Below are positions 4,268 to 46,127 of a DNA stretch of 46,127 bases, piece after piece. Location: IMG/VR virus record IMGVR_UViG_3300048592_000656, one strand, 5' to 3'. Numbering within the stretch: the stretch's first letter is position 1; each line of letters opens with the position of its first letter. This DNA comes from a virus. The position numbers were made by a program, and so were the translations under genes. Under the pieces are notes generated by a model. That model saw only the letters and a list, made by a program, of their open reading frames with translations. It did not search any database and was not told where the DNA came from.

Positions 4268-4280
4268 CCTGTCCTATAAT
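4268..4280 (+). promoter_or_regulatory. Promoter-like element CCTGTCCTATAAT (-10 TATAAT 4275-4280)
   Basis: Intergenic, after the PrimPol-helicase stop. TATAAT is followed by 7 nt (gcaattg) and then an in-frame ATG at 4288. A T5-6CGT run lies 27-32 nt upstream, as at 4916 and 8138. Confidence 0.5.
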
Positions 4281-4506
4281 GCAATTGATGGGGGGCGAAA
4301 TGATGACACGGCTACGAAGGATGCGAGAAGAGCGAGGATGGACTCGAGCAGATTTAGCCCGTCGGGCTCGAGTCTCTCTTCGTACTCTATACACCGCTGA
4401 AAAGACGGGTAACATCTCACAAAGGAAGAAAGTCCGAATCGTCCGGGTCTTCGGACTTTCCTGGCAAGAAGTATCCGAGGTCTTTTCCATGGTGGAACAT
4501 GTTTAG
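4279..4506 (+). CDS. XRE-family helix-turn-helix regulator (75 aa; probable real start 4288 or 4300)
   Basis: MTRLRRMREERGWTRADLARRARVSLRTLYTAEKTGNIS is a classic XRE/Cro-CI HTH. The track start 4279 lies inside the TATAAT box; ATG 4288 fits a leaderless start. Confidence 0.75.
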   Translation: MQLMGGEMMTRLRRMREERGWTRADLARRARVSLRTLYTAEKTGNISQRKKVRIVRVFGLSWQEVSEVFSMVEHV

Positions 4507-7655: not shown

Positions 7656-7656
7656 C

Positions 7657-8136
7657 ATGGACGCAGTAGATCCGACCTTGGCGAGTCTTTTGGCAGTCGA
7701 CACCCAATGGGATCGATTGCAAAGAGATGAAATGTTCCTCGCCATCGCCAAGGTCGTTTCTCTGCGAGGAACCTGCAGAAGGGCTCAAGTGGGTGCGGTG
7801 ATCGTCAAAGAGAACCGAATCATCTCCACAGGCTACAATGGGTCTGCCCCGGGTATGCCCCATTGCTATGAAGATGGTTGTCTCGAGGACGTGAATGGTG
7901 GGTGCACTCGGACGGTACATGCTGAAGCCAACTCGATTCTGTGGGCAGCGAGGTTCGGGGTATCGGTTGAAGACTCGGTGATGTATTCAACTCATTCCCC
8001 TTGTCTCTACTGTGCAAAGATGATCGTGGGGGCTGGCATCGTCAAGGTCACCTATCTGCACCCATACCGAGACCCCGCTGGGCTTGACTACATGCACAAC
8101 TGTGGGCTACGATACTGTCACCTTCAGGTTGGGTGA
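7657..8136 (+). CDS. dCMP deaminase (CMP/dCMP-type zinc deaminase)
   Basis: VHAEANSILWAA (HAE) and HSPCLYCAKMI (PCxxC) zinc-binding motifs. Start taken at ATG 7657, 1 nt after the upstream stop. Confidence 0.85.
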   Translation: MDAVDPTLASLLAVDTQWDRLQRDEMFLAIAKVVSLRGTCRRAQVGAVIVKENRIISTGYNGSAPGMPHCYEDGCLEDVNGGCTRTVHAEANSILWAARFGVSVEDSVMYSTHSPCLYCAKMIVGAGIVKVTYLHPYRDPAGLDYMHNCGLRYCHLQVG

Positions 8137-8162: not shown

Positions 8163-8175
8163 CCTGAGATATAAT
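8163..8175 (+). promoter_or_regulatory. Promoter-like 13-mer CCTGAGATATAAT (-10 TATAAT 8170-8175)
   Basis: Intergenic and identical to the 13-mer at 13436-13448. ATG 8187 is 11 nt after the -10. TTGGGT lies 18 nt upstream, and a T5CGT run is at 8138-8145. Confidence 0.6.
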
Positions 8176-8186
8176 TGGAGAATCGT

Positions 8187-10799
8187 ATGGCAACAGTAAA
8201 CGGCGATCCTCGATGCACGTTATGTCCCCTTCACAAGACTGCACAGATCGTGTGTCTTATGGGTCGGGGGCCTCTCCCTTGCAAGGTGATGATCGTAGGC
8301 GAGGCACCTGGTCGAAGGGAGGATGACGTTGGTAAGCCCTTTCAAGGTGCTGCTGGGCGCGTTTTGGACGAGGAGCTTTCGCTCAACGATGTATCGAGGA
8401 ATGACGTTTACATCACCAACACAGCCCGATGTAGACCACCCAGGAATCGAACTCCCAAGGCCGTAGAGATTCGTGAATGCGCCATCTGGATGGAGAAGGA
8501 GTTCAAGGAAGTTCAACCCAAGTTCGTTCTCTTGATGGGTCGAACTGCTTTGAAGACCGTGCCATTCTGGAAAAAAGCGAGCATCACGAAGATCCGAGGC
8601 CAGATCTACGAGCACGATGGCGTCTATTACATGGCTACGTTCCACCCTGCAGCCTGTCTGCCTGGAAGAGATACTGGCCGTGATAAGAAGCGCCCGGCAT
8701 TCCGAATCGACTTGAGTACCTTCTTCAAGTTGGTACGAGACGGGAAACCCCAGGAAACTGAGGGATTGAACGTCCAGATAGTTCGGAATGCCGACACTTT
8801 CAACGAGATGATCGACGACCTTCGAGAATGTCCCGATCCCTCGTATGACTTGGAAACCATGGGCCTTCGACCTCACGTGCCAAAGAAAGACATAGTCCTG
8901 GCTGGCTTTGGTACAGAAAAAGCTCAATGGGTCGTACCCATCAATTATCCCACAGCCGACGGAGGCAACAAGGCCCCGTTCAAGACTCGTCGGTCTAGGA
9001 AAATGGCTTGGGAATTGATCGGCGAAGCAATCCACGGTAAAAAGCTCATTACCCACAATGGCAAGTTCGACGCTTTGTGGGCATATACGAGATATGGCGT
9101 GATGCCGTATATTGGCTTCGACACGATGCTTGCTCACTATGTTCTAGATGAGAATTCACCGCACGCTCTCAAGTACCTTGGCCCTCTCTACTTTGGTATC
9201 CATGATTGGTCATTGGATATGGAAGGCGAATGGTGGCTCAGGTATACGCTCAAGGAATCGTCGAAGTATCTAGCTCAGGATCTTTTCTACACTCGAAAGT
9301 TGAAAGGCATCTTGTATGCTGAGCTAAGAAAAGACCCCGCGCTACTCCGATTCTACCGAACAATCCTTCTGCCTGCTTTCAGGCTCTATGCTCGAGTCGA
9401 AAAGGAAGGTATGTTTCTCAATATGGCCAACTACGAGGCGGCCAAATCTCACGCAATGAATCTTTGGGGTAGGGCATGCCTCGAGGTCAATAGAATCGAC
9501 CCCTCCATCAATTGGGGATCGCCGAAGCAAGTAGCCAAAAAGCTATATGAGGAGTTTGGCTTTCCCATCATCAAGACGACAAAGAAGGGAGCTCCGTCGT
9601 CAGATGAGGCCACACTTACCATCTTGGCTGAACCCCCCGACAAACCCATCCATATGTCTATCACTCGGCCAAATGAAAATCCAAAGATATTCGGCTCGAG
9701 AAAGACTATCGAATGGTGGTCCGGATACAAACACGAGATTCCACAAGCTCTTTTGAATCATCGGGCAGCGAAGAAAATGAAGGAGTTTGTGGATTCGTGG
9801 GAAGAACACCAGCAAGGTGGGCTAATTCACCCGTCTTACAAATTCCTCACCGTCACGGGTCGACTCTCTTGTGAAGGTCCTAACATTCAGCAAACGCCTC
9901 GAGAAAAAATCTTGAGGCAATGCTTTGATGCCCCCTTTCCGTTCATCTTCGTCGAGGCCGACCATTCACAGGTCGAACTCCGAGGCGTAGCGATGTTCGC
10001 TCCCGAGCCTACGATGAAAGCCATCTTCATCGCAGGCGAAGATATTCACAGGATGACTGCTCGAGACATCATTGGGATTGCTAACCCTACAGCCGAAGAC
10101 CGAAAGAAAGCAAAGGCAGTCAACTTTGGTCTCATCTACAGGATGGGCTGGAAAAAGCTACGAATCTACGCTCGTACCAAGTACGGAGTTGAGCTTTCTC
10201 CCGGGGAAGCGAAGAAGATCGTCAAGAATTACTTCCTGAAGTACAATCGACTCCGGTATTACTACGAGAAGCAAGAACGAGTAGCTCGGATGAATGGCTA
10301 TGTCCGTCATCCGTTGGGTCGCGTTCGCCACCTTCCCAATATCTTTTCTGAAGACGAACAAGAGCAGAACGAGGCAATTCGACTTGCCATCAATTCCCCG
10401 GTTCAGGGGTTCGCTTCAGATTACAATCTAGCGGGCATGGTTGACGTCGACCTTGAATTCAATCCCACTTGGGATGGTCCGCTACGAATCGTAGGAACGG
10501 TTCACGACTCGGGGCTGATGTGGGTCCATGCTCTTCATCTCCGTCGAATCCTCCCGAGGGTGAAGGAGATCATGGAGCATCCGCCCCGAGTCAAGAACAA
10601 AATCGGATTTACTCCTACGGTGCCTTGGAAGGTCGATTTCAAGATCGGCCCTTGGGGCGCTGGCAAGGAAATCGATCCGATGGCATGGGAAAATTGGGAA
10701 GTCTTCGTCAAAGACATGAAGGAGTCTGGTCAATGGGAACGGTACAAGCAGGCGAGGGAAGCGAAGAAGATCGACTCGTCGTTTCCCTCAGTCGGATAA
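8187..10799 (+). CDS. polA: Family-4 uracil-DNA-glycosylase domain fused to a family A DNA polymerase with 3'-5' exonuclease
   Basis: UDG4: CTLCPL, GEAPGRREDDVGKPFQGAAGRVLDE, ARCRPPRNRTP, FHPAA. Exo: YDLETMGL, HNGKFD, YLAQDLFY. Pol: ADHSQVELRG (motif A), KAKAVNFGLIYRMG (motif B), GTVHDSG (motif C). ATG 8187 is preferred over the track TTG at 8175. Confidence 0.9.
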   Translation: MATVNGDPRCTLCPLHKTAQIVCLMGRGPLPCKVMIVGEAPGRREDDVGKPFQGAAGRVLDEELSLNDVSRNDVYITNTARCRPPRNRTPKAVEIRECAIWMEKEFKEVQPKFVLLMGRTALKTVPFWKKASITKIRGQIYEHDGVYYMATFHPAACLPGRDTGRDKKRPAFRIDLSTFFKLVRDGKPQETEGLNVQIVRNADTFNEMIDDLRECPDPSYDLETMGLRPHVPKKDIVLAGFGTEKAQWVVPINYPTADGGNKAPFKTRRSRKMAWELIGEAIHGKKLITHNGKFDALWAYTRYGVMPYIGFDTMLAHYVLDENSPHALKYLGPLYFGIHDWSLDMEGEWWLRYTLKESSKYLAQDLFYTRKLKGILYAELRKDPALLRFYRTILLPAFRLYARVEKEGMFLNMANYEAAKSHAMNLWGRACLEVNRIDPSINWGSPKQVAKKLYEEFGFPIIKTTKKGAPSSDEATLTILAEPPDKPIHMSITRPNENPKIFGSRKTIEWWSGYKHEIPQALLNHRAAKKMKEFVDSWEEHQQGGLIHPSYKFLTVTGRLSCEGPNIQQTPREKILRQCFDAPFPFIFVEADHSQVELRGVAMFAPEPTMKAIFIAGEDIHRMTARDIIGIANPTAEDRKKAKAVNFGLIYRMGWKKLRIYARTKYGVELSPGEAKKIVKNYFLKYNRLRYYYEKQERVARMNGYVRHPLGRVRHLPNIFSEDEQEQNEAIRLAINSPVQGFASDYNLAGMVDVDLEFNPTWDGPLRIVGTVHDSGLMWVHALHLRRILPRVKEIMEHPPRVKNKIGFTPTVPWKVDFKIGPWGAGKEIDPMAWENWEVFVKDMKESGQWERYKQAREAKKIDSSFPSVG

Positions 10800-13455: not shown

Positions 13456-14835
13456 ATGACGAAAATCCCTCTCAAACTACACCAAAAGCTTGGCATAGCC
13501 CGAGCGATGAAGTTTGACGGTTACGCTCTTTATTTCAAACAGGGAGTAGGGAAGACTGCTGCAGCCATTGGTTATCTCGAGGCTAGGCAACCAATCTCTA
13601 CAGTCCTTGTTATTTGTCCGCCGGTCGTGATTGATACATGGCTGGAAGAAATCGAAAAGTTCGCCGACTTTGAGCGAAGGGTGATCCGGTTAGATGACTT
13701 CGGAGCACTGCAGGGAGCTGAGTTTCGATCGCTCGTTAGGAAATCAAGGGGTGCAAAAAACACCCTAATCGTTCTCGCAGGCTATCAGCTCGTAGTCCGA
13801 AGGAAGAACTGGTTCAAGAGACTGCGATGGGACGTCGCGATTGCCGACGAATCCCATATGATTAAGAAACATTCCTCGAAGCAATCTAAAGTCCTATATC
13901 AAATTGGGAAATTGACCCAGTACAAATTGCTTTTGTCTGGGACCCCATTTGATAAGGGCGGTCTCGACGTCTTCGCCCAATACCGATTTGCATGTCCCGA
14001 AGTGTTTGGGACCCATTGGGGTAAATTCACCGAGAGATATGCCAAGAACATCGGGTATGGGTACACTAAGCTTGTGGTCAAAGAGACTAAGAAGGCCAAG
14101 CTTAGGGAAAAGATTCATTCACGGATGATGAGGGTTGAGATCGAGGACGTCGAGCAAATGCCCGAGCTCAATCATTCCGTGAAGCGGTTCGATCTCGAGC
14201 CCGACGTCAAAAAGATATATGATGAGCTCGAGGCTGAAGCTGTGGCAGAATTCAAGGGCAAGATGGCTTTTGCTCCTGTGGTTCTAGCGAAGACTACCCG
14301 TCTGCAACAGATTGCAGGAGGTTTCTTCGTAGACGATAGGAAACAAATTCACAGGATTAGCCGAGCTAAGACTCGGAAGCTAAAAGAACTTCTCCAGCAG
14401 ATCGGGAATGAGAAGGTCGTAATCTACTGTAGATTCAGACCCGAGATAGAAGCAGTTGCCAAGCTTTGCACTGCTATGGGTCTCAATCCCATCCAAATGC
14501 ATGGGGGCATTAACCGAAGAAAGCGAATGCCGCTCCGAAAGCAGTTTGTGCAGGACCGGTCGGCAAAAGTCTTCGTTTCACAGATCCGTGTCGGTGGGAT
14601 CGGGGTTAACGAGCTTCGGGTAGCTCGCATTGGGATTATGTACTCCACGACGCACTCGTGGATTGATTTCGACCAAGCCGTAACACGCCTATACAGGAAA
14701 GGACAGACTAGGAATGTAATCTTCTATCATCTGATTGCCAGAGACACAGTGGATGAAGATATCTACAAGACCGTTAAATCCAAGGGTAAGCGTACACAAG
14801 TCCTTCTTCGGATGGAACAAAGGAGAACCGCTTGA
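13456..14835 (+). CDS. SNF2-family DNA helicase/translocase
   Basis: FKQGVGKTAAAI (motif I), IADESHMIK (DExH), LLLSGTP (motif III), and C-terminal helicase motifs SQIRVGGIGVNEL and QAVTRLYRKGQ. Confidence 0.85.
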   Translation: MTKIPLKLHQKLGIARAMKFDGYALYFKQGVGKTAAAIGYLEARQPISTVLVICPPVVIDTWLEEIEKFADFERRVIRLDDFGALQGAEFRSLVRKSRGAKNTLIVLAGYQLVVRRKNWFKRLRWDVAIADESHMIKKHSSKQSKVLYQIGKLTQYKLLLSGTPFDKGGLDVFAQYRFACPEVFGTHWGKFTERYAKNIGYGYTKLVVKETKKAKLREKIHSRMMRVEIEDVEQMPELNHSVKRFDLEPDVKKIYDELEAEAVAEFKGKMAFAPVVLAKTTRLQQIAGGFFVDDRKQIHRISRAKTRKLKELLQQIGNEKVVIYCRFRPEIEAVAKLCTAMGLNPIQMHGGINRRKRMPLRKQFVQDRSAKVFVSQIRVGGIGVNELRVARIGIMYSTTHSWIDFDQAVTRLYRKGQTRNVIFYHLIARDTVDEDIYKTVKSKGKRTQVLLRMEQRRTA

Positions 14836-32665: not shown

Positions 32666-33631
32666 CTACTGGATCGTGATCTCGACGCCCGGAGTGTCCC
32701 GGTCCGACGTGACCGCCTTGTCCCAGTTGGTTGCGGTCGCGATGGTCGCGTCGTTGGGATTGGCACCGCCGTTGGCGATGTCGTACTTCATCCCCTTGAC
32801 GCGGAGGCTCATCGCGAACTCTCCCTGCATGCGGATGACCAAGTTCTCCAGGCCGGTGATGACCTGGGAAACGATGGTCTGTTCCTCCGACTGGATGACG
32901 GCGACGGCGTTCGCGGTCAGACCGAGCCACTTGTAAGTGACCGGCGTTCCCGCGATGGGGCCGAGGTCCGACTGATCGGCGATCACGACGGGCTTGCCGA
33001 GGGTCGCAGTCACGCCACTGCGAATGGCGATGCCCGTGATCTCGAACAGCTTCTCCGTGATCGCGCTCTTGACCAGATCGAAGTAGGGCTTCGAGTGCGT
33101 GACCCAGCAGACGATGCGGTCTGCCTGATCACCGAACTTGGCCAGGCCGTCGACCAGGTCGGGGTGAGAGATGGTCGCATCGTCCGCATCCACCTTCATC
33201 GTCGACTGGATCGAGGCGATGACCGCCTTCATCGCCACCTTGAAGTATTCCTGCATGATCTGTTCGCCGGCCATCTGACCGATGACGAGGCTGAGCTCTT
33301 CCGAGCTCATGCCGATCTTGCGGAACGAGTCGAAGGTCTGAGCGACCGGGCCGATGCGCCGGTTCAGCTTGACCGCGATGATTTCGTCCTGGGTCATCGA
33401 AGCATCGGCCACCGCGGTGGTGACGGTGGGATCGCGCCGAGCGATGAGACCCGAGACCATCTCGAAGAAGGTCCGTCGCAGGTACTCACCCTTCATTGCG
33501 TCCGACAGGAGCACGATCGCGCCATTCGAAGCTTCGTTGAAGACTCGGACGTTGCGGTCGAGCGTCTCGGCCACGGCCGTATGGAAGATTTCGTCATAGA
33601 TGACGAAACCAGATTTGGTACCGATCGCCAT
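32666..33631 (-). CDS. Major capsid protein (321 aa)
   Basis: Position after the scaffold gene, size, strong codon regularity, and a capsid-like N-terminus MAIGTKSGFVIYDEIFHTAVAETLDRNVRVFNEASNGAIVL. Confidence 0.8.
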   Translation of the reverse strand: MAIGTKSGFVIYDEIFHTAVAETLDRNVRVFNEASNGAIVLLSDAMKGEYLRRTFFEMVSGLIARRDPTVTTAVADASMTQDEIIAVKLNRRIGPVAQTFDSFRKIGMSSEELSLVIGQMAGEQIMQEYFKVAMKAVIASIQSTMKVDADDATISHPDLVDGLAKFGDQADRIVCWVTHSKPYFDLVKSAITEKLFEITGIAIRSGVTATLGKPVVIADQSDLGPIAGTPVTYKWLGLTANAVAVIQSEEQTIVSQVITGLENLVIRMQGEFAMSLRVKGMKYDIANGGANPNDATIATATNWDKAVTSDRDTPGVEITIQ

Positions 33632-34433: not shown

Positions 34434-36038
34434 TTACTCCTCCTTGCTTCCGGTTTCACCGGGAGCCTTTTGTTGCTTGGTCTTTTGTAGCTCTTGCTGT
34501 TGTTTGAGCTTTTCCTCGGCTTCTTTCTTGACCGCCACCAACTCGATCGCGGCATCGAACGAGGGAGCCAGGACCCCTCGGCGAACCAATTCCTTCCAGT
34601 AGGTCTCCTTGCTCAGAAGACCAGATTCAACGGCTCCTCGTAGCTCGCTGATTTCGATTCCGTCGAAGGCTACGAACTCGTCGTAGATTTCCACGAGACA
34701 GCCTTCGGACATCCCCATGTAGTCCGAACCGTCGTCGAAGCAGGCCTCGATGAATCGCTCGAGGTCACGAACCATGGCTTTCAGGTCACTGGTCGTTTCT
34801 GCCGACTTGATACCTGCTTCGGTCGCTGTCGCGGGGGTCGGGCTGGGGCGCTCGATGATGGGTCGCATCCCCAGTACGACGATCTGCTCGAGAATATCTC
34901 GAAGGTCTTGTCGACCCGCTCCGATTGCTGCTCCACTGTGCTCGACGATCTGAAGCTTGGCTTCGGGGTCTCGAGCGGTCAGCATCACATTCGGACTGAC
35001 CTTGATTCGCTCGCCGTTGTCGTCTTTGAAGTCCTCGTCACTGATGCCCGAACCAAACCAGATCGGTACTCGGGCAATGTGAAGAATGTGACGCTGGTCA
35101 CTGCTGGATTGCCAGTGCTCCAGATTCTTCCACGCGAGGTCTTCGAGAAGAGGCCGACCCATCATGAACCCGATCTTTCGGGTGTAGTAGGTCCGAAGCG
35201 GGATTCGATTGACCGATACTTCCCCTTGATCGATCACTGACCACTTCGAGGTGTCGGGGTTCTTCTCCCACAGTTCCCATGTGGTGCGGCCCTCGAACAC
35301 GCGGAGTCGCCCATTTCGACGACGTGCGCGGCGTGTGCCCGCAAGCTCGCGATTGAAGACTCTGATCCTCTCGTATTCCCGTTCTCCGAACTTGCCGTAT
35401 TGCTTTGTGACAGTTTCCTTGATGCGAAGATGGGTGAGGACTTCTTCACCTCGAAATCGCTGGGAGCGCCAGAAGATGATGTTTTCGGGGGGAACGTGTA
35501 CGAAGTAGGGTCGGATATTCAGAGCGCGTTCATCTGCGAGACTGAGCCCAGGGTCTACTGCGGGCATGTCGACCAGGACGTGAGTAACGCCACGGTCGAT
35601 CGCCATCTCGAGCACGCGCTTCGAGAAGGTCGTGATGTGGGTGCCCTCGAGGTCTACGTCATTCTGCCACTCTTTGATCTCGTTCGGGCCTTCTTTGACC
35701 ACAACGTCCCGCTCGAAGGGACGGGAAGCAATGTGGTGAACCGTGTCACCGTATGCTCCGAAGAGAATCGTTCTTTCGAGACGATTGTTGTAGGCTTCCT
35801 CCGATTCACCTTCTTCCTGAGGCAGGTACTTGGTCCGTGCGGCCCTCATCCCGATGGTACCCTCACCCAGGGTCATCGGCAGATGCCACCGTTCCATCAT
35901 CGCGTCGTAGGCGAGTGACTCCCGTGCCACGTCCTCGTTGTTCGGGCCACCGCTACTTGACACCGTGGTCCGATCGAAGCTGATCTTGACCTTGGCGATG
36001 TCTGTCGCGAAGGGTCCGATGTCAGACGGAATGGGCAT
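34434..36038 (-). CDS. Portal protein (534 aa)
   Basis: Size and position immediately after terL (1-nt overlap). Acidic/basic C-terminal tail. Confidence 0.75.
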   Translation of the reverse strand: MPIPSDIGPFATDIAKVKISFDRTTVSSSGGPNNEDVARESLAYDAMMERWHLPMTLGEGTIGMRAARTKYLPQEEGESEEAYNNRLERTILFGAYGDTVHHIASRPFERDVVVKEGPNEIKEWQNDVDLEGTHITTFSKRVLEMAIDRGVTHVLVDMPAVDPGLSLADERALNIRPYFVHVPPENIIFWRSQRFRGEEVLTHLRIKETVTKQYGKFGEREYERIRVFNRELAGTRRARRRNGRLRVFEGRTTWELWEKNPDTSKWSVIDQGEVSVNRIPLRTYYTRKIGFMMGRPLLEDLAWKNLEHWQSSSDQRHILHIARVPIWFGSGISDEDFKDDNGERIKVSPNVMLTARDPEAKLQIVEHSGAAIGAGRQDLRDILEQIVVLGMRPIIERPSPTPATATEAGIKSAETTSDLKAMVRDLERFIEACFDDGSDYMGMSEGCLVEIYDEFVAFDGIEISELRGAVESGLLSKETYWKELVRRGVLAPSFDAAIELVAVKKEAEEKLKQQQELQKTKQQKAPGETGSKEE

Positions 36039-37441
36039 TAGAACCTCACCTCACCACCTGCAACTGCCTTCCTCGCCGGAGCGATGGCAATTGCTGCGGC
36101 ATCAGCCCGATCAGGGCTGGGAAGTTGCCTACGCTTCATCTCTTCTTTGCGTTCGATCACGATGCGGTTTCGAGCATCGTACTTGTACCTGATCTTTGAG
36201 AGTTGCGCGGCCAACTCTTCATCATGGACGTCGATGTCGATCTTGTTGTCCTCGAACTTCTTCCTGAGAGCCCAGAAGATTTCAGCCCTTCTGTTGATGA
36301 AGAGATCCTTGTCATCCGGAGACTCAGCGAAGTTCACAGGCTTGATGATCCGACGCCCGTGCTTTGCTTTCAGCATGTCGACCACGCCAGCGCCAACACC
36401 GACTTCGTCGATCTTGACCTGTGCGGGCTCGTGCTGACCGATCAGCTTCGTGATTTTTTCACAGACCTGAACTGTGTCGAGGCCCTGGCCCGTACCTACG
36501 AGCCTTAGATGGTCGCCACGTCGGAGATAGATGACGGTTTCCGCGTCGCCATACCTCGCGACGTCCACGCCGAACTCTTTGACCCCAGAGGCTTCGATTG
36601 ATCTGGCCTGAGCCCTTTCGATCCAAGAAAGAGGAACGAGAGCATCACTCGCGCCAGGCGGGAATTCGCCCATGACACGAGCATACCAGAAAGCGGAGTC
36701 TTCACCCCACTTCTTTCGCTTCTCTTCCACCCACTCGGGAGTTACCAAGCCATCGACGAAACCCTCCGGGTCCTCGTCTGTGGCAAACTCCTTTGTGAAG
36801 TTCGGCGTGTCGAAGGCCGAGATCTTCATCTTGAACGCCGGAGACCGATTACCGAACTCCGTGTTGAAAGGCGTATCCGGATCAGTCGGATTGCCGATGC
36901 CCAGGAGGATTGCGTGTCGTCCAGTCAGTACACCTTCGCAGGCTTCCCAGATCTTCGGGTCAATGCCACAGGCCTCGTCAAACACAACTAACATGTGCTT
37001 GGCGTGGTGCCCCTGGAATGCATCGGGATCCTCGGTAGAGAATCCCATTGCAAACCAGCCCGTGTCTACCTTCAACTGAGTGGTATACATCTTGCCACCC
37101 AGCGGAATCCTCGAGTTCTCGTAGAGCTTCTTAACCTCTTGCCACAAGATCTTCTCAACCTGGCGGAAAGTAGGCGCGGTTGTCAAGACCCTTGACTCAT
37201 AGAAGCAGAACGCGAACCAGAGAACCGCTACTGCAGCAAGAAAAGTCTTACCAGCTCCGTGGCAAGACCTGATCATTACCCGACGATTCTTGCAGAGTGC
37301 GCGGAGGGCTATCCGCTGTTTCTTCCAAAGTCGGACGCCCAAAATGTGATTGGCGAAGAAGACGGGATCTGCTTGGCATCTCTCGAAGATCGACCTGACC
37401 TCGAGATTAGAGAGCCGGTAACCACCGGGCGCGTAGGACAC
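36038..37441 (-). CDS. terL: Terminase large subunit
   Basis: Walker A-like IRSCHGAGKTFLAAV, Walker B LVVFDEACGI, and a C-terminal nuclease region with conserved acidic residues (FGVDVARYGDAE, IDEVGVGAGV). Confidence 0.9.
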   Translation of the reverse strand: MSYAPGGYRLSNLEVRSIFERCQADPVFFANHILGVRLWKKQRIALRALCKNRRVMIRSCHGAGKTFLAAVAVLWFAFCFYESRVLTTAPTFRQVEKILWQEVKKLYENSRIPLGGKMYTTQLKVDTGWFAMGFSTEDPDAFQGHHAKHMLVVFDEACGIDPKIWEACEGVLTGRHAILLGIGNPTDPDTPFNTEFGNRSPAFKMKISAFDTPNFTKEFATDEDPEGFVDGLVTPEWVEEKRKKWGEDSAFWYARVMGEFPPGASDALVPLSWIERAQARSIEASGVKEFGVDVARYGDAETVIYLRRGDHLRLVGTGQGLDTVQVCEKITKLIGQHEPAQVKIDEVGVGAGVVDMLKAKHGRRIIKPVNFAESPDDKDLFINRRAEIFWALRKKFEDNKIDIDVHDEELAAQLSKIRYKYDARNRIVIERKEEMKRRQLPSPDRADAAAIAIAPARKAVAGGEVRF

Positions 37442-37661: not shown

Positions 37662-37901
37662 CTACTGTGCCGGAGTGGTCTGCTCGACCACGTCTTCCAC
37701 AGTGACTTCCGTGGGGATCTCGGTGAAGGACATCTCGTACATCCCTCCCTCGCGGATCCCTTCGCAGACGTCGGTCTTCACGAGGACTTCGTAGACCCCG
37801 TGGACGTTGCCGTCATTGATCTTCGTGCTTGTGCCGAAGATCAGGCGATGAAGGCCATTGCCCATGTCGTTCTTGTGGTTGCAGCGAGCCTTGATCTTCA
37901 A
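37662..37901 (-). CDS. Hypothetical protein (79 aa)
   Basis: ORF track. 4-nt overlap with terS. No motif. Confidence 0.45.
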   Translation of the reverse strand: MKIKARCNHKNDMGNGLHRLIFGTSTKINDGNVHGVYEVLVKTDVCEGIREGGMYEMSFTEIPTEVTVEDVVEQTTPAQ

Positions 37902-38458
37902 TGGATCTTCTCCTTGTCGTCCTCGGTTGCGAAGCTGGCCGCGACCGCTTCGGGCGAGAAGTCACTCTCCTCGTCCTCCTCCAGAAGGGCCTCTTCGATG
38001 GGCATCGCAGCCTTCTTCGCCAACTGAGCGAAGGTCACCGCGATGGGATCGCCATCTCGTCCGAAGACCTCGAGCTTGCGGCTGTACTTCGGATGATGGG
38101 CTTCCAGCATCCTGATGGCCAGGATGTCGGAGAACTTCTTCGTCGTTCCGACCTTCCGTCCCATCTGGAAGACGGGCTCGTCCACGCCATCGAAGGCGCG
38201 GCGGGCGGCCTTGGCTTCCCAGGCTCCAACCGAGACCTGAAGAGCGTGATCCCACGCTGCGGACAGGCGGGGATGCTTGTTCTTGAGACGGTAGAGAACG
38301 CGGTCGGACTTGAAGCCTGCCTTCGCTGCGGCTCGATTCACGTTCGGGACTTCGCGGAGCTCCTGGAGGAACTTCTCGATCATCCGCGGTGTCACTCGGG
38401 GCGGAAGAGCCATGCTCTTCTTCTTCCCTTCCGCGATTGTGTTCCTCGCTCGTGCCAT
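37898..38458 (-). CDS. terS: Terminase small subunit candidate
   Basis: Basic N-terminus with an HTH-like VNRAAAKAGFKSDRVLYRLKNKHP. 186 aa with an acidic C-terminus. Lies upstream of terL. Confidence 0.6.
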   Translation of the reverse strand: MARARNTIAEGKKKSMALPPRVTPRMIEKFLQELREVPNVNRAAAKAGFKSDRVLYRLKNKHPRLSAAWDHALQVSVGAWEAKAARRAFDGVDEPVFQMGRKVGTTKKFSDILAIRMLEAHHPKYSRKLEVFGRDGDPIAVTFAQLAKKAAMPIEEALLEEDEESDFSPEAVAASFATEDDKEKIH

Positions 38459-38878: not shown

Positions 38879-38884
38879 ATTATA
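38879..38884 (-). promoter_or_regulatory. Candidate late-operon -10 box (minus strand ATCAGGTATAAT)
   Basis: The minus strand reads ccgatCAGGTATAATcc, 43 nt upstream of GTG 38835. It is related to the GAGATATAAT boxes on the + strand. Confidence 0.35.
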
Positions 38885-39191
38885 CCTGATCGGCACTCGG
38901 CCTGTAAAGGTTGCCCTCGCATCGCTGGCAAGTTAGTCGCAATTCGAGCGCCTAGGAGTTGAGCCCCTGACTGAGTTTCAATTTCTCCCGGTTCTGGCAC
39001 CGGCGTTTCAAAGCCCCAGTTAGACTGGTTGTCTCCGGAAGAGACGGTCTTGTTTGACGTTTGTTGGGCGGGACAGGGCCGCGTTTCGCGCGCGTCGATT
39101 TCGGGGGGTGCGTCGCGACGCGCACACAAACGAAACGCGCGCCGAGTGTCGCCACCCGACGCGCGCTCGTTTGCGCTAGTGCGCTTGCGCG

Positions 39192-39599
39192 CTAGTCGCT
39201 CGCGCGCTCGACGTTCGCCTTGCGCGGCGCAGCGATCGCGAACACGCGAACGCGGCGCGCGTCGTCGCGAACGACGACGCTCGCATCGACGACATGATGT
39301 CGGCGCAGTCGTCGCAGTACTTGGCGCACTTCGCGATACGTCGCGACATCGGCGCATCGCGTCGCGATCGCGCGCGTCGTCGCGACGTCGCCGCGACGCG
39401 CGAGCGCGCGAATCGCATCGACGACGCGCGTTTCGGCGCTCGCTGCGACGAAGCGCTCGTCGGTGTACACCTTCGTGCGCTTCGTGCGCTTCGTGCGCTT
39501 CGTCGTTGCGTCGTCGGCGATGATGGCGTCGTTCGCCGCGTTCGCTTCGTCGTTGTTCATCGTAATCATACTATTTACTCGTTTCGTCGTTTCGTTCAT
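39192..39599 (-). CDS. Winged-helix DNA-binding protein encoded in a CpG-rich island, paralogue of 43539..43928 (start uncertain: 39599, 39569 or 39560)
   Basis: Best reading frame of several open frames. ...(TKR)x3...AIRALARRGDVATTRAIATRCADVATYREVRQVLRRLRRHHVV...RRVRVFAI aligns with QVRQALRRLRRRQRI...QTRVYFL of the + strand gene. No SD before any candidate start. Confidence 0.45.
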   Translation of the reverse strand: MNETTKRVNSMITMNNDEANAANDAIIADDATTKRTKRTKRTKVYTDERFVAASAETRVVDAIRALARRGDVATTRAIATRCADVATYREVRQVLRRLRRHHVVDASVVVRDDARRVRVFAIAAPRKANVERASD

Positions 39600-39867
39600 C
39601 GCGTTAGTGCGATCGAACGAGTGCAGTATCGAACGCGCGCGAACGAAACGCAAGCGCATAACGCGCGAATTGTTTTATACTCGCGCGTTTTATAAATTCC
39701 AACGTCGCGAACGCGCGAACCGCAATCCATCGTCGTCCGTTCATTTCACGTCCGCTCACGTCATCTCACGTCATCTCATCTCACCTCATCCGCGCGCGCT
39801 CGAAACCTGACCTGACCGGACTAGATCGGGCGCTGGGGCCTGACTTGACCAGACCTCGAGTGAGGTG

Positions 39868-40034
39868 GTTCTCAGGCATGAGTCAGGCGCTCCATCGCGA
39901 TCATGCGAGCCCGTTCTCGGTCTCTCTAGATCTGGAGAGATAAAGTTCTCAGGCGTGGGATGGTTCTCAGTAGCAGGTTCTCGGCGTGGTTCTCAGGCGT
40001 GGTATAGTTCTCAGGCCTGCCAGGCTTTGAGAAC
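39868..40034 (+). repeat. Iteron cluster 1: seven direct GTTCTC(A/G)G copies plus one inverted copy
   Basis: GTTCTC starts at 39868, 39913, 39945, 39963, 39977, 39989 and 40007 (extended consensus GGTTCTCAGGCGTGG). Inverted GAGAAC at 40029-40034. ORF-free. Confidence 0.85.
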
Positions 40035-40045
40035 ATGAACCTGGC

Positions 40046-40064
40046 GGCCTGACTAGACCTGAAG
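40046..40064 (+). repeat. 19-bp direct repeat GGCCTGACTAGACCTGAAG, copy 1
   Basis: Identical to 40170-40188. The pair brackets the 17-bp tandem array. Confidence 0.9.
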
Positions 40065-40078
40065 TAAAGACCGTACCT

Positions 40079-40143
40079 GAAAGTAGCCCGAACTAGAAAG
40101 TAGCCCGAACTTGAAAGTAGCCCGAACTTGAAAGTAGCCCGAG
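40079..40143 (+). repeat. Tandem repeat, 17 bp x ~4 (GAAAGTAGCCCGAACTT)
   Basis: Units at 40079-40095, 40096-40112 and 40113-40129, plus a partial unit at 40130-40143. Copies 2 and 3 are identical and copy 1 differs at its last base. Confidence 0.95.
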
Positions 40144-40169
40144 GCTGAGGTATCAAGCCTAGGTACCGT

Positions 40170-40188
40170 GGCCTGACTAGACCTGAAG
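40170..40188 (+). repeat. 19-bp direct repeat GGCCTGACTAGACCTGAAG, copy 2
   Basis: Identical to 40046-40064. Confidence 0.9.
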
Positions 40189-40204
40189 AGAAGAACGAAT
40201 CGAC

Positions 40205-40240
40205 AATCAATCCCCCGCGTGGATCGCGGGGAGATTGATT
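40205..40240 (-). terminator. Hairpin terminator candidate after the 40240..40629 gene
   Basis: aatcaatcccccgcg / tggat / cgcggggagattgatt: a ~15-bp stem with one bulge that abuts the stop codon. On the minus strand it is followed by the moderately U-rich gtcgattcgttcttctcttc. Confidence 0.5.
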
Positions 40241-40629: not shown

Positions 40630-40677
40630 GATATGTCTCCTGATTTCGTTTTCGTCGCGTTCGTCGCGACGACGATA

Positions 40678-40690
40678 ACGATATCTCAAG
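40678..40690 (-). promoter_or_regulatory. Promoter-like motif CTTGAGATATCGT (minus strand)
   Basis: 49 nt upstream of ATG 40629, followed by the CG-rich leader tatcgtcgtcgcgacgaacgcgacg. Same class as 41432-41444 and 41934-41946. Confidence 0.5.
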
Positions 40691-40753
40691 TGGAAACGCC
40701 TGTCGAATTCCACCTGCCCGGGCCTGAACCATCATGCCTGCCCAGTACCGAGG

Positions 40754-40835
40754 CCTGATACCTACTGGACTCTAAGGCCTGATACCTACTGGACTCTAAG
40801 GTGATACCAAACCTGATACCTACTGGACTCTAAGG
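40754..40835 (+). repeat. 24-bp repeat CCTGATACCTACTGGACTCTAAGG x3
   Basis: Identical copies at 40754-40777, 40778-40801 and 40812-40835. A 10-nt spacer tgataccaaa separates copies 2 and 3, and a partial 4th copy (cctgat) starts at 40836. Confidence 0.95.
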
Positions 40836-41389: not shown

Positions 41390-41431
41390 GATGAGACCCC
41401 CTTCGCGCGTCGTTCGTTCGACGCGATACGA

Positions 41432-41444
41432 ACGATATCTCAGG
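41432..41444 (-). promoter_or_regulatory. Promoter-like motif CCTGAGATATCGT (minus strand)
   Basis: The minus strand reads caCCTGAGATATCGTtcgtatcgcgtcgaacgaacgacgcg. Its downstream end is 43 nt from ATG 41389. Confidence 0.55.
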
Positions 41445-41465
41445 TGTAATCAAAAGTAAATATCC

Positions 41466-41484
41466 TGAGAAAATTATTTTCTCA
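41466..41484. promoter_or_regulatory. Perfect 19-bp palindrome TGAGAAAAT-T-ATTTTCTCA (operator candidate)
   Basis: 9-bp arms around one central base. Lies in the divergent region between the leftward (41432) and rightward (41603) promoter-like motifs. The half-site resembles the TTCTCA iteron core. Confidence 0.6.
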
Positions 41485-41602
41485 AGCAGGCCCCATCTGT
41501 GCGGGCCTGACTAGTCCTGACCCTAAGAGGCTCTCTCTCATGGGCGGCCTGACCTGACCTGCGGAGAATTGTGGGAGAACAAGTACCCACATCCTGCTCA
41601 GG

Positions 41603-41615
41603 CCTGTGATATAAT
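41603..41615 (+). promoter_or_regulatory. Promoter-like motif CCTGTGATATAAT (-10 TATAAT 41610-41615)
   Basis: Rightward, in the divergent intergenic region. ATG 41624 begins 8 nt after the -10. Confidence 0.55.
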
Positions 41616-41623
41616 ACCTGTCG

Positions 41624-41908
41624 ATGGCCAGATCTCTCGACCTTACGATCCGCACCTGTCCTGAGATGCCCCTTTCTCAGGTGGGCTTGCCGGATAACGC
41701 GCGTAAGATTCAGGTGCCGGCTCCTCAGGCCCCGCACCCCCAGGCGGAATCATTCTCAGCCGTTCTCACGCGCGCAAGCTCGTTCTCGGTTCACAGTCCA
41801 TTCTCGCGCTCCCTCGTTCTCGGAAAACCTGACCTGCCTTCAGGTAAAAGACTATTCTCGGTAGAGCCCCTATGCGAAACCCGTGCCAACAATCTTAAAC
41901 TGGACTGA
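41624..41908 (+). CDS. Doubtful ORF (94 aa) overlying iteron cluster 2
   Basis: ORF track. A leaderless-type ATG sits 8 nt after a -10. However the product is low-complexity Pro/Ser-rich, and its repeated FS dipeptides come from the TTCTC repeats. Confidence 0.25.
   Translation: MARSLDLTIRTCPEMPLSQVGLPDNARKIQVPAPQAPHPQAESFSAVLTRASSFSVHSPFSRSLVLGKPDLPSGKRLFSVEPLCETRANNLKLD
41752..41861 (+). repeat. Iteron cluster 2: six direct (A/G)TTCTC(A/G)(C/G) copies
   Basis: Copies start at 41752, 41762, 41782, 41800, 41816 and 41854, in the same orientation as cluster 1. Confidence 0.8.
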
Positions 41909-41933: not shown

Positions 41934-41946
41934 CCTGTGATATCGT
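41934..41946 (+). promoter_or_regulatory. Promoter-like motif CCTGTGATATCGT heading a 520-nt ORF-free stretch
   Basis: Same motif class as the two leftward copies. The next convincing CDS starts at 42466. Confidence 0.45.
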
Positions 41947-42465
41947 TACGACGATCGAATAACGTGATCGTAGGACTCAGGAAGCTGATACGACGTTCGC
42001 GTTCGGGAGAATCGCCCTCATACAGGCTTCTCTCCCCTCGTTACGATCTTTGACACCACTGACGTACCCACGCTTCGTCGCGCCTCTCAGGATACGACCG
42101 GGGCTAGCGAACCCCGTTACGATCTAAGAGTCGACGATGGCCCACGTCAGTGACAGCCGGTACGCGATAACGCGATACCCCGACGTTTCCGCCCACGCTC
42201 CCAAGCTCCCGCACCTCACTACGCAGCGTTCACGTAGATGAGATAAACGTCGCGCAGTCATCGCCTCTTACGCTACCCCATACACGCTGGAAGTTTCCTT
42301 TCTTCTTCCCCATCGACGACGAGATGAGAAGACAGTTCTCGCTCGTAGTCGAAACTGAGGGGCACGTTCTTCACAGTCTGGTAACCCGGACACCGAGTCC
42401 GTAGCCCCTTAGTTAGCGGGACTTGACCTACCCGCTCTGAAGATGACAGGTCAATCGAAAGGGGA

Positions 42466-44545: not shown

Positions 44546-44813
44546 TGCACAGCACAGCGACCTGGATCGCATCCGCCGCCCAGTCACAAATCGCGCGACG
44601 CGAATTGCGACACAGGCACCGGATGCAAATTCGATCTCCCCCACGATCATGCACAGCGTTGCACAGCGGCGATTCCCCACCCCGACCTCACAAAACAGGA
44701 AGGGGTGGGTGAACCGCCATTCCGCACACACAACCCGTGTAGGTATCGATAAAGACGGGGGAGAGTTTCGGCCTCGACAACCACACAGGGTTGTCATAGA
44801 ATGGGAGAGTTCA

Positions 44814-44826
44814 GAGAACGGTTCTC
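44814..44826. promoter_or_regulatory. Palindromic iteron pair GAGAAC-G-GTTCTC (operator candidate)
   Basis: 48 nt upstream of ATG 44874. Same hexamer as the two iteron clusters, in inverted arrangement. Confidence 0.55.
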
Positions 44827-44873
44827 CCGTACTCTCTCACTCATCAGAAGAAAAGAAGAGAAGGAAACTTCAC

Positions 44874-45332
<459 letters not shown>

Positions 45333-46000: not shown

Positions 46001-46127
46001 GACTTCCAGTATGTCAATCATCAAGCTCCACCAGGGTCAGGTCCAGGAGATCCCCTTCAAGCAGGGGGACAATCTCCTGGAGCTCACCAGAAACACGTTC
46101 CACAGCAAGACCTTCACCGTGAGTCAC
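46001..46127. repeat. Terminal direct repeat, copy 2 (exact duplicate of 1-127)
   Basis: Same comparison as copy 1. It contains the 5' end of the CDS annotated at 11..400, so the unique genome is 46000 bp. Confidence 0.97.

Follow-up and report, generated by a model that had tools for sequence, protein, structure and literature searches.

The window, i.e. the whole stretch of 46,127 nucleotides analysed here, represents a phage with a 46-kb circular genome (W), which was compared with its relatives L001, L002 and L003. Directly downstream of an ori-like iteron field of ~400 bp (39830-40200, three repeat families) lies a CpG-saturated island, the limits of which were refined to ~39060 and ~39800. 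The island is one self-contained and vertically inherited minus-strand unit within the control region of the phage, built of upstream inverted repeats around a putative promoter, a gene for a 125-aa protein, and a terminator-like hairpin. The features of this region and of two predicted early promoters are the following:

38879-38908, minus strand: predicted sigma-70-like promoter TTTACA-N18-TATAAT of the 124-aa/TerS packaging operon; normal composition, kept in L010 and L003
39041-39050, minus strand: invariant AGACCGTCTC in a small hairpin, just beyond the downstream edge of the island
39060-39800, no strand: the whole CpG-saturated island (rho*(CG), the symmetrised odds ratio, 2.27); the equivalent module is at 4505-5245 in L002 and 1700-2420 in L003
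39071-39094, plus strand: weak inverted-repeat arm bracketing the island, 19 of 24 positions matching 39795-39817, possibly by chance
39096-39108, minus strand: conserved 3' motif CCCCCCGAAATCG, CCCC(C/T)GAAATCG in all three lineages
39133-39168, minus strand: terminator-like hairpin of 16 pairs followed by TTTCGTTTGTGTG, 24 nt past the stop codon
39192-39569, minus strand: gene for the 125-aa protein (MITMNNDE...ERASD), an ORF with homologues; basic N-terminal tail and predicted helix-helix-helix-beta-hairpin core
39477-39503, minus strand: tandem repeat ACGAAGCGC x3 in the N-terminal region, encoding TKRTKRTKR
39581-39597, minus strand: leader motif GAACGAAACGACGAAAC, directly upstream of the start codon
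39625-39653, minus strand: putative promoter TTGCGT-N17-GATACT, a weak match to the consensus that a consensus scan misses
39660-39718, no strand: three perfect 9-mers in alternating orientation, AACGCGCGA / TCGCGCGTT / AACGCGCGA, with spacers of 12 and 20 nt
39747-39773, minus strand: three (T/G)GACGTG units with 10-bp spacing at the upstream edge, adjoining the iteron field
39795-39817, minus strand: the other bracket arm, GGTCAGGTCAGGTTTCGAGCGCG, which includes the iteron-type motif CAGGTCAGG
40640-40706, minus strand: predicted early promoter TCGACA-N17-TATCGT with a CpG-only leader and the perfect inverted repeat TCGTCGCG-N5-CGCGACGA (40652-40672)
41395-41460, minus strand: predicted early promoter TTTACT-N17-TATCGT with a CpG-only leader and the perfect inverted repeat CGCGTCG-N6-CGACGCG (41406-41425)

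The genome as a whole has 54.7% GC and a CpG observed/expected ratio (o/e) of 1.07. The segment 39030-39800 contains 170 CpG at 62.6% GC (o/e 2.25), and the refined island (39060-39800) contains 167 CpG per 741 nt (o/e 2.3). Windows of 300 nt hold on average 24.0 ± 8.3 CpG with a peak of 81 at 39201, and the seven richest of them are contiguous (39001-39601). The island is thus ~7 SD above the mean, so that the preliminary description of a CpG-saturated segment unlike the rest of the genome is borne out, and its figure of 21 CpG for positions 39361-39420 is exact. The rho*(CG) value is 2.27 for the island vs 1.04 for the phage genome, and outside the island only 5 of ~2300 80-nt windows exceed +3 SD in the share of G+C found within CpG. 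The defining trait of the island is not its GC content, but the occurrence of C almost only before G. The probability that a C is followed by G is 0.68-0.87 in the island and 0.28 elsewhere, and the CC/GG, AG/CT and CA/TG steps are depleted 2-5 fold. The rule is present in the coding sequence and in both flanks. The spacing of the CpG steps has neither 3-nt nor 10-11-nt periodicity, and no single repeated motif stands out beyond the dinucleotide content, the best k-mers (ACGA, CGAA, GACGA, CGACGA) reaching only z ~2-3. Many CG-containing restriction palindromes cluster in the island and are not avoided there: GCGCGC is found 11 times within it and 2 times outside (18.6 expected, i.e. 9-fold under-represented), and ACGCGT is absent outside (12.9 expected). 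Elsewhere the genome indeed prefers TCGA/CTCGAG contexts, with 536 copies of TCGA and 77 of CTCGAG vs 12.9 expected.

At least five overlapping open frames on both strands had been reported for the island, and six of 80-171 aa are found. Judged from the alignments, the frame encoding the 125-aa protein is under purifying selection. Its homologues P0001, P0002 and P0003 are 99%, 65% and 57% identical, and the last two values, which are those between lineages, stand beside 62% and 31-43% for the neighbouring proteins. The nucleotide differences concentrate at the third codon position (48 vs 30 and 23; 51 vs 32 and 33; 62 vs 34 and 32), and dN/dS is 0.29-0.50. An overlapping antisense gene was considered and rejected: the codon-aligned antisense frame, although open in W and L003, is interrupted by a stop codon in L002, and the substitutions fit the sense frame. 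The threefold 9-bp repeat noted earlier is present as ACGAAGCGC, and CpG-rich tandem units of 9-12 nt occupy the same N-terminal region in each lineage with different sequences, (ACGACGAACGAA)x3 in L003 and GCGAAGCGC x2 in L002.

The product is basic, and it is probably of the winged-helix type. Two AF2 models, of the full protein and of the trimmed domain, agree on the order of the elements (H37-58, H65-75, H78-90, E96-102, E106-112), with pLDDT of 55-60 from 3-4 sequences, and the predicted helix 3 (YREVRQVLRRLRR) hardly varies. Winged-helix regulators make up most of the structure-search lists, none of them significant, and Foldseek gave no significant match (best E 0.55 in PDB and 0.12 in BFVD). 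In Pfam/NCBIfam the best hits were DNA_binding_1, PadR and DUF480 (E 0.06-0.16), short of the curated cut-offs; PHROGs gave nothing better than E = 0.05, and PDB sequences gave no match.

Strong hairpins are found at the place equivalent to the terminator-like hairpin in L002 and L003, in both cases without the U-tract, and the -10-like GATACT of the putative island promoter is kept in L002. The three 9-mers upstream of the gene flank AT-rich stretches and, from their arrangement, look operator-like; in L003 the equivalent region carries a pair of 27-bp palindromes and an inverted repeat of 52 nt. Motifs related to GAACGAAACGACGAAAC precede the start codons of the island genes of L002 and L003 and of other early genes. 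At the upstream edge the previously noted CTCACGTCAT micro-repeat is present and takes the form of the three (T/G)GACGTG units, for which L002 has GTGACGG x2 and GTGACGTG as a counterpart. No tRNAs were found, and all matches to Rfam were far under the gathering scores.

The island composition is kept up by ongoing selection on the nucleotide sequence as such and is no foreign relic. The gene holds 97 of 105, 95 of 111 and 87 of 94 possible CpG in the three lineages, i.e. 86-93% of what its protein allows, vs 32-68% in other genes, although the same protein could be encoded with 0 CpG. This is achieved by matching each codon to the base after it: of the NNY codons, 92 of 106 have C in the third position when G follows and 8 of 32 when another base does (odds ratio 19.7, p = 8e-11), whereas in control genes they end in C in 65% of cases whether G follows or not. 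The dS values of the island gene (0.56 and 0.80) are below those of neighbouring genes (0.74-1.32 and 1.89), and 35-40% of the CpG positions have turned over with the total count kept. The unusual constraint that had been offered as one of two explanations is therefore supported, the protein-binding or modification-target field named as an example of it being a candidate. The protein sequence is shifted as well: it favours amino acids whose codons can contribute to CpG (A, R, T, D, V, N, E, K, I), and its CpG capacity is raised by ~60%. The constraint acts almost equally on the two strands in the coding sequences of W and L002 (orphan C vs orphan G, 28 vs 32 and 37 vs 40, respectively), as is expected for a property of double-stranded DNA. 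Strict sense-strand specificity was rejected in view of this symmetry and of a similar mild bias in the controls. An origin by a deaminase that spares CpG was also rejected: 0.22 CpG per nt is about twice the value of random sequence of 65% GC (~0.105) and near the 0.25 of pure G+C, and since the removal of other cytosines cannot yield such a density, we infer that CpG is positively enriched. The density of SNPs between W and L001 is uninformative as a test of constraint because their divergence is a mosaic.

The only lineages known are L001 (the same phage), L002 (~70% nucleotide identity) and L003 (neighbour proteins 31-43% identical). The order iteron field, island, packaging operon (124-aa/TerS genes) is kept in all three of them. 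The density of CpG per nt is 0.225 in W, 0.219 in L002 and 0.212 in L003, at 63, 64 and 52% GC, and rho*(CG) is 2.27, 2.15 and 3.10, respectively. Searches with the 124-aa neighbour and TerS returned the same three lineages only, and L007-L009, which match a degenerate DNA pattern of 21 bases shared by the three lineages, were discarded as chance matches. Among 5.8 billion proteins there is no homologue of the 125-aa protein beyond this phage group, and scanning IMG/VR, GTDB genomes and JGI metagenomes with protein patterns gave nothing. The more distant YuA-type phages have neither the 125-aa gene nor the CpG island; in YuA, SN1 and V45iii there is no comparable island, the maximum o/e being 1.32. 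It can be stated with high confidence that the unit exists, is conserved, is under selection on its nucleotides and has no foreign origin.

The same sequence grammar is found at the predicted early promoters. CpG-only segments begin at their -10/TSS and extend ~90 nt into the transcripts, after which the composition of the other early genes is normal again. The C-before-G rule and the oligomers CGAACGA, CGACG and TCGTCGCG fill the 35-45 nt past the early -10 boxes, and the 7-mers and 9-mers common to the islands and the early leaders exceed those of dinucleotide-preserving shuffles (z = 3.5-10). The inverted repeat CGCGTCG-N6-CGACGCG is identical in L002, where the arms of TCGTCGCG-N5-CGCGACGA recur as well. 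On the sense strand the CGA(A)n motifs have one orientation throughout.

These observations can be joined in one model, in which the gene product, predicted to be an arginine-rich winged-helix DNA-binding protein, would regulate the early region by recognizing CpG-dense DNA. Its targets would be the 20-21-bp inverted repeats of the early promoters, centred near +12 to +15 (an estimate counted from the -10 box), and also the inverted 9-mers at its own putative promoter. As its own gene is built of such CpG-rich sequence, tight self-repression could result, or a store of binding sites beside the origin and the late promoter. We put forward the complete statement, a vertically inherited and selected unit with a CpG-reading early regulator, tentatively and well short of conviction, while the specific mechanism, a regulator that reads its own CpG field, is doubtful. 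The lack of both a strongly over-represented k-mer and a CpG periodicity speaks against a series of discrete binding sites, operator-like sequence throughout the coding region and terminator is more than a repressor ordinarily requires, and the inverted repeats of the leaders could equally be 5'-terminal RNA hairpins. The single orientation of the CGA(A)n motifs, the unusually strong structure predicted for the island mRNA, the low AF2 confidence and the absence of a significant structure or profile match also count against the model. In a wider formulation, which we consider rather unlikely, selection would keep the regulatory module in an effective three-letter alphabet (A, T and the unit CG) close to the theoretical CpG maximum, and the CpG step would itself be what a dedicated reader recognizes, whether this is the arginine-rich winged-helix protein or a modification system directed at CpG.

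The hairpins of the leaders lead to an explanation at the level of RNA, in which C only before G serves the early transcripts and the function of the protein is unrelated to CpG. The message would be provided with dense self-complementary hairpins, including stabilizing 5' stem-loops, and the CA/CC/CU and GGAG-type sites of endoribonucleases, editing enzymes and internal ribosome binding would be removed; the island gene would be extreme because its message must persist or escape such activity. In its favour, the CpG-only segments run from the early -10/TSS ~90 nt into the transcripts, the leader inverted repeats would fall at the very 5' end, and the CGA(A)n motifs have one orientation. The predicted folding of the island mRNA points in the same direction, with an MFE of -0.54 kcal/mol per nt vs -0.36 ± 0.035 in other windows and -0.445 expected from its GC, a structure z of -2.96 in W and -4.68 in L003 relative to dinucleotide shuffles, and the least structured translation-initiation region among the 20 tested. 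In L003 the sense strand has fewer orphan C than orphan G (7 vs 24), likewise over the whole island, and GGAG is absent from each transcript (~4 expected). On the other hand, the rule is symmetric in the coding sequences of W and L002, the mild sense bias is found in control genes too, and RNAalifold gives an unfavourable covariation term (+9.45), many base pairs being broken and no specific fold being supported by co-variation. The rule also reaches 100-150 nt upstream of the putative promoter, and the other early genes have a normal composition after ~90 nt. Only GGAG and CTCC are absent, whereas ACA (4, 5 and 2 copies in the three transcripts), GCT (3, 5 and 1) and TAC (4, 4 and 7) are reduced and still present. 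Moreover, avoidance of orphan C needs no enrichment of Ala, Arg and Thr, yet the CpG capacity of the protein is up by ~60%. On this evidence the RNA explanation, which is the chief rival of the regulator model, is unlikely, while clearly worth consideration. The symmetry of the constraint, its dinucleotide level and the lack of a specific longer motif would suit a target field for a CpG- (or CGCG/GCGC/TCG-) directed methylase or other base modification, of host or phage origin, which controls expression, origin firing or packaging. The P1 pac site with its Dam-methylated hexamers is an analogue of such a field, the island is located between the iteron field and the terminase genes, and outside the island GCGCGC is under-represented and ACGCGT absent, with the former present 11 times inside. 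The phage encodes a thymidylate-synthase-like enzyme, a dCMP deaminase and a TMP-kinase-like enzyme, a set that relatives of this phage type use for base hypermodification (PMC6449724). The modified base in those relatives is, however, T in TG/TC contexts and not CpG (PMC6449724), which speaks against this explanation. The ~55 phage ORFs scanned include no methyltransferase or other DNA-modifying enzyme, and a protein-coding gene inside the field is left unexplained; a modification field is improbable.

An accessory role in replication or packaging is about as improbable. In this case the neighbouring iterons would be bound by the protein in the manner of lambda O, a plasmid Rep or a terminase helper, and the CpG block would be a very stable duplex 'clamp' or a barrier to forks or transcription. 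The gene adjoins the 400-bp field of three repeat families, inverted iteron-like motifs bracket the island, phased GACGTG repeats mark its edge, and replication initiators and the RTP terminator protein occur in the non-significant structure-search lists. Nevertheless, the protein has no homology to any replication initiator, its 125 aa and one predicted domain differ from the WH1-WH2 architecture of more than ~230 aa, and the bracket repeat is weak. In addition, GG/CC and GC steps are equally stabilizing, yet depleted or only mildly enriched, and the CpG leaders at the early promoters are unexplained. A neutral by-product, i.e. a gene born by slippage or expansion of leader-type CpG-rich repeats whose composition was merely kept, would account for the lineage-specific CpG-rich tandem units of the N-terminal region and for the oligomers common to the island and the early leaders. 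It is very improbable, as the synonymous sites, despite their divergence (dS 0.56-1.2), keep each of the three lineages at 86-93% of the CpG maximum, the choice of codon follows its context (odds ratio of 20), CpG turns over at constant count, the conserved C-terminal domain is non-repetitive, and L003 is more extreme, not less. A recent import from a high-GC genome such as Burkholderia, in line with the recent acquisition proposed in the preliminary description, has in its favour the discrete composition and the codons preferred in W and L002 (GCG, ACG, CGC, GTC, GAC), a usage which we take to resemble that of high-GC proteobacteria. That proposal did not hold: all known relatives carry the segment at the equivalent position with equal or more extreme composition, it has diverged alongside its flanks, and the composition shows no decay despite a dS of 0.6-1.2 between lineages. 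The searches for a donor were empty, both by megablast/blastn of the island against phages and by tblastn against phages and plasmids, and no homologue exists outside the phage group among proteins, GTDB genomes, plasmids and phages. The L003 copy combines 52% GC with a rho*(CG) of 3.1, and we know of no cellular genome with such a CpG signature; an import is hardly credible. The same low standing is assigned to Z-DNA-prone DNA with a Z-alpha-like winged-helix protein bound to the left-handed form. Poxvirus E3-type proteins occur in the non-significant structure-search list, and there are 15, 10 and 8 (CG)n runs with n >= 3 in the three lineages. Against this, BLASTP with the ADAR1 Z-alpha domain gave no alignment, helix 3 has Arg + Arg at the Asn and Tyr contact positions (by manual alignment to that domain), the protein has no Trp and hence none in the wing, the alternating runs are at most 9-13 nt long, and L003 keeps the CpG density with fewer of them.

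With respect to known systems, the island resembles phage 'morons', which Hendrix and colleagues reportedly described as autonomous promoter-gene-terminator cassettes of deviant composition between functional modules. It is small and self-contained, with a terminator-like hairpin and a putative promoter, deviates in composition, and lies between the early/ori and packaging modules. Unlike a moron, it occupies one and the same position in all known relatives, with which it has diverged, its donor was not found, and its deviation is CpG-specific, not GC-specific, and maintained by selection without decay. For annotation this is a warning that a sharp compositional island alone is no evidence for horizontal transfer. 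Binding sites in or near the gene of the binding protein are familiar from lambda O (ori inside gene O), iteron-binding Rep proteins, and autorepressors with operators near +1 (lac O1). The present unit is similar in having a predicted winged-helix protein beside an iteron field, inverted repeats at its own putative promoter, and 20-21-bp inverted repeats just downstream of predicted early promoters; it differs from lambda O, Rep and the autorepressors in that homology is not detectable. To our knowledge, there is no case of an entire gene with its flanks written in a restricted dinucleotide alphabet. As in restriction-site avoidance and the MazF-resistant ACA-less mRNAs, the synonymous choice obeys a nucleotide rule independent of the protein, but here the rule is a dinucleotide grammar with positive enrichment of CpG, not the absence of one motif, and ACA is still present. 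We are not aware of a description of local, gene-specific dinucleotide selection of this strength in bacteriophages. Such selection shows that CpG, or cytosine outside CpG, is read in the infected cell by some agent, be it a protein, an enzyme of DNA modification, a nuclease or a process at the RNA level, and that this agent acts on one particular putative regulator gene and on the very start of early transcripts.

The other comparison is with the CpG islands of vertebrates, which are likewise discrete clusters of several hundred bp with very high CpG at the promoter/5' region. The winged-helix-type protein with an arginine-rich recognition helix predicted here is reminiscent of the domains that read CpG (CXXC; the winged helices of KAT6A and SAMD1), with structural matches to KAT6A and SAMD1 that are not significant (E ~2). 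Vertebrate islands only escape a genome-wide loss of CpG (o/e ~0.6-1), whereas the phage background is undepleted (1.04-1.07) and the island is enriched 2-3 fold, near the maximum that the coding sequence allows. The identity of the reader could reveal a new principle of regulation or of defence and counter-defence, and a dedicated CpG reader, if true, would be a bacteriophage counterpart of the CpG island and its reader, linking the early promoters and the origin region to the onset of packaging.

From ~39060 to 39800 the phage genome carries an island in which a cytosine nearly always has G as its next base. The number of CpG per 300-nt window is 24.0 ± 8.3 genome-wide and reaches its maximum (81) at 39201, and the seven highest windows form one contiguous block (39001-39601). 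The preliminary description had claimed CpG saturation of 39030-39800, with repeats and overlapping open frames, and a TCGA/CTCGAG preference elsewhere. The sliding-window counts confirm the saturation (170 CpG, observed/expected 2.25; exactly 21 in 39361-39420), and the repeats, the open frames and the TCGA/CTCGAG preference are present as stated; CTCGAG, for one, has 77 copies outside 39030-39830 where base composition predicts 12.9. The observation is sharpened to a dinucleotide grammar: the symmetrised odds ratios (rho*) in the island are CG 2.27, CC/GG 0.24, AG/CT 0.46 and CA/TG 0.66, and in the rest of the genome 1.04, 0.93, 1.05 and 0.97, respectively. The grammar extends over the coding part and both flanks of the island, and the CpGs occupy all three codon phases, most frequently across codon boundaries, with no periodicity.

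Nucleotides 1-127 are identical to 46001-46127, and the sequence is therefore a complete phage genome of 46.0 kb (46,000 unique bp) in a circular, or terminally redundant, assembly. The GC content is 54.7% and the genomic CpG observed/expected ratio 1.07. Outside 39030-39830 the palindromes GAGCTC (36 times), GACGTC (33) and ATCGAT (24) are also enriched, and rho* is 1.41 for GA/TC and 0.50 for TA, a signature common to the related metagenome contigs L002 and L003; strong avoidance is seen outside the island for GCGCGC (2, with 18.6 expected) and ACGCGT (0, with 12.9 expected). With only ~35% identity between its portal and the portals of YuA/M6-type siphophages, the phage represents a new lineage. 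A DNA search of 50,697 phage records gave neither a near nor a distant match. The replication, packaging and structural genes located are:

2289-4241, plus strand: primase-helicase (replication)
8175-10799, plus strand: PolA (replication)
13456-14835, plus strand: helicase (replication)
32666-33631, minus strand: major head protein (structural)
34434-36038, minus strand: portal (packaging/structural)
36038-37441, minus strand: TerL (packaging)
37898-38458, minus strand: TerS (packaging)

TMP-kinase-like, thymidylate-synthase-like and dCMP deaminase genes are clustered on the plus strand (4979-5497, 6864-7655 and 7621-8136); in YuA/M6-type phages such an enzyme set serves 5-hmdU-derived thymidine hypermodification (PMC6449724).

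The island and its surroundings comprise the following elements:

38908-38879, minus strand: predicted sigma-70-type promoter TTTACA-N18-TATAAT, a good match, heading the operon of a 124-aa gene and TerS
39168-39133, minus strand: 16-pair hairpin with T-rich tail, starting 24 nt past the 125-aa ORF
39569 to 39192, minus strand: 125-aa ORF (ORF scan)
39653-39625, minus strand: weak putative promoter TTGCGT-N17-GATACT, 5' of the 125-aa ORF
39660-39718, upstream of the 125-aa gene: three perfect 9-mers AACGCGCGA/TCGCGCGTT in alternating orientation
island edge adjoining the iteron field: three GACGTG units with 10-bp spacing
40085-40152: four copies of the 17-bp iteron unit AGCCCGAACTTGAAAGT
within 39830-40200: repeat families GTTCTCAG (about six copies) and GGCCTGACTAGACCTGAAG (three)
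39806, 40855, 41548, 41553 and 41828: recurrences of CCTGACCTG

The iteron field (39830-40200) is dense, with three repeat families, and probably serves as an origin or in packaging. Directly before it, the perfect GC-rich hairpin CCCCGCGTGGATCGCGGGG (40213-40231), with a terminator score on both strands, closes the leftward early operon.

On comparative grounds the 125-aa gene is real. Only three relatives of its protein (P0001, P0002 and P0003, with 99, 65 and 57% identity) were found among 5.8 billion proteins and a library of 1.84 billion representatives; a fourth hit, P0004, belongs to a eukaryotic repeat protein and is spurious. Between lineages the changes pile up at the third codon position (48 vs 30 + 23, 51 vs 32 + 33, and 62 vs 34 + 32), dN/dS is 0.29-0.50, and the protein keeps a higher identity (65 and 57%) than its two neighbours (62 and 31-43%). 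An antisense gene was rejected, the antisense frames not being open consistently across lineages. Searches of Pfam, PHROG, NCBIfam and PDB sequences with the protein returned nothing past threshold. Two AlphaFold runs concur on a winged-helix topology, in which three helices precede a beta-hairpin, with pLDDT of only 55-60, and winged-helix regulators are abundant in the Foldseek lists, none of them significant. The predicted third helix is arginine-rich and nearly invariant. The product is thus, as an inference, likely a winged-helix DNA-binding protein.

The composition of the island is actively maintained. With the protein fixed, the island genes hold 97 of 105, 95 of 111 and 87 of 94 CpGs of the synonymous maximum (86-93%), whereas eleven other phage genes reach 32-68% of theirs. 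The island proteins themselves could be spelled with 0.26-0.28 CpG per nt, compared with 0.145-0.183 for others; the island proteins are dominated by Ala, Arg, Thr, Asp and Val and nearly lack Leu, Gly, Pro and Ser. Of the NNY codons before G, 92 of 106 have C as their last base, and of those before another base 8 of 32 (odds ratio 19.7, p = 8e-11); in L003 the counts are 29 of 31 and 0 of 15; in control genes 65% end in C whether G follows or not. The dS values are 0.56 and 0.80 for the island, lower than those of neighbouring genes (0.74-1.32 and 1.89). Between lineages 35-40% of the CpG positions differ while the totals are equal, and CpGs therefore turn over at a held density. A region under unusual constraint, as the preliminary description had suggested, is thus upheld by the CpG content close to its maximum, the codon context and the lower dS. 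The near-maximal CpG, dS and next-base-dependent codons leave a neutral by-product of history unsupported, and a mutational origin through a deaminase sparing CpG could not, by our reasoning, yield 0.22 CpG per nt.

The alternative offered at the same time, recent acquisition from a different genome, is refuted by the criterion which that description itself had set, because the relatives carry the same segment in the same order with conserved or more extreme composition. Their common order is iteron-type repeats, the island with its gene, the conserved motifs CCCC(C/T)GAAATCG and AGACCGTCTC, the 124-aa gene and TerS. Contig L001 is the same phage (97% nucleotide identity), L002 and L010 are ~70% identical, and L003, L011 and L012 are further away. 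For the island of L002 rho*(CG) is 2.15, and the L003 island reaches 3.10 with a GC content of only 52%; across the three metagenomic lineages that form the comparison base CpG per nt is nearly equal (0.225, 0.219 and 0.212). A comparable island is absent from the distant phages YuA, SN1 and V45iii, and no donor was found among phages, plasmids, IMG/VR, GTDB genomes and metagenomes. Between 37500 and 42000 the divergence from L001 is a mosaic (45 differences in 41500-41749, 20 in 39750-39999, and long stretches with 0-1 per 250 nt), which points to recent recombination inside the control region. The contigs of relatives (L002 end, L010 and L012 starts) break at the island or within ~140 nt of it, suggesting assembly or coverage trouble there, or population heterogeneity.

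Outside the island, its grammar is found in short segments at two kinds of place only, the GACGAC repeat of an acidic ORF and the stretch directly past early-promoter -10 boxes. Apart from the island gene, the ORF (44649-45332, plus strand) is the one coding stretch in which CpG-only cytosines were flagged; its long acidic low-complexity C-terminal tail, with E/D runs and DDDS repeats, is spelled by GAGGAG/GACGAC repeats. The early-promoter elements are:

40706, minus strand: predicted promoter TCGACA-N17-TATCGT
41460, minus strand: predicted promoter TTTACT-N17-TATCGT
41936, plus strand: predicted promoter TGTGATATCGTT
40677-40688 (minus), 41431-41442 (minus) and 41936-41947 (plus): phage-specific core TG(A/T)GATATCGTT of the three promoters
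8165 and ~13440, plus strand: core variant CCTGAGATATAAT, immediately 5' of the start codons for PolA and helicase
40652-40672, in a 35-45-nt leader: perfect inverted repeat TCGTCGCG-N5-CGCGACGA
41406-41425, in a 35-45-nt leader: perfect inverted repeat CGCGTCG-N6-CGACGCG

The arms of both inverted repeats are identical in L002. Between the repeats and the ribosome-binding site comes a CGAACGAAACGA-type stretch, which is also present in L003. Islands and early leaders share 7-mers and 9-mers significantly in excess of dinucleotide-preserving shuffles (z = 3.5-10). An AT-rich palindrome, GAGAAAATTATTTTCTC (~41455-41480), adjoins the early promoters and is kept in the distant L003 (~612-635); another regulator, such as the XRE-type HTH product of 4279-4506, probably has its operator here. 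Two tandem copies of a 24-bp direct repeat, aggcctgatacctactggactctaa (~40740-40800), lie upstream of the promoter at 40706.

We prefer a model in which the 125-aa protein would regulate the early region by binding CpG-dense DNA, its own gene among the targets. The C-before-G rule is nearly symmetric between strands in this phage and L002, and operator-like inverted repeats lie just past the early promoters and at the putative promoter of the 125-aa gene; this symmetry, the repeats and the arginine-rich helix 3 would fit a protein that reads some feature of the double-stranded DNA. Against such a reader, no defined motif stands out in a k-mer search of the island, and no CpG phasing was found there. 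The main rival places the constraint on the RNA of the island and early transcripts. The island transcript has an exceptionally stable predicted structure, at -0.54 kcal/mol per nt (-0.36 ± 0.035 for other mRNA windows; z = -3.0 in this phage and -4.7 in L003 vs shuffles), the leader repeats would fold into hairpins at the 5' end of the RNA, every CGA(A)n motif is sense-oriented, and L003 shows a sense-strand bias. However, co-variation is absent in the three lineages, the C-before-G rule does not stop at the putative promoter but runs on upstream of it, and ACA and similar nuclease motifs persist.

The island may also be a modification-target field, but a methyltransferase was not found among the phage ORFs scanned, and the contexts of T modification in related phages, TG/TC (PMC6449724), do not match a CpG island. 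A Z-DNA/Z-alpha reading was unsupported by a check of alternating runs and by Z-alpha sequence comparison.

The foreign-DNA reading is rejected and the constraint upheld. In general kind the island is familiar, a conserved cassette around a putative regulatory gene; for its constraint on composition we know of no phage precedent.
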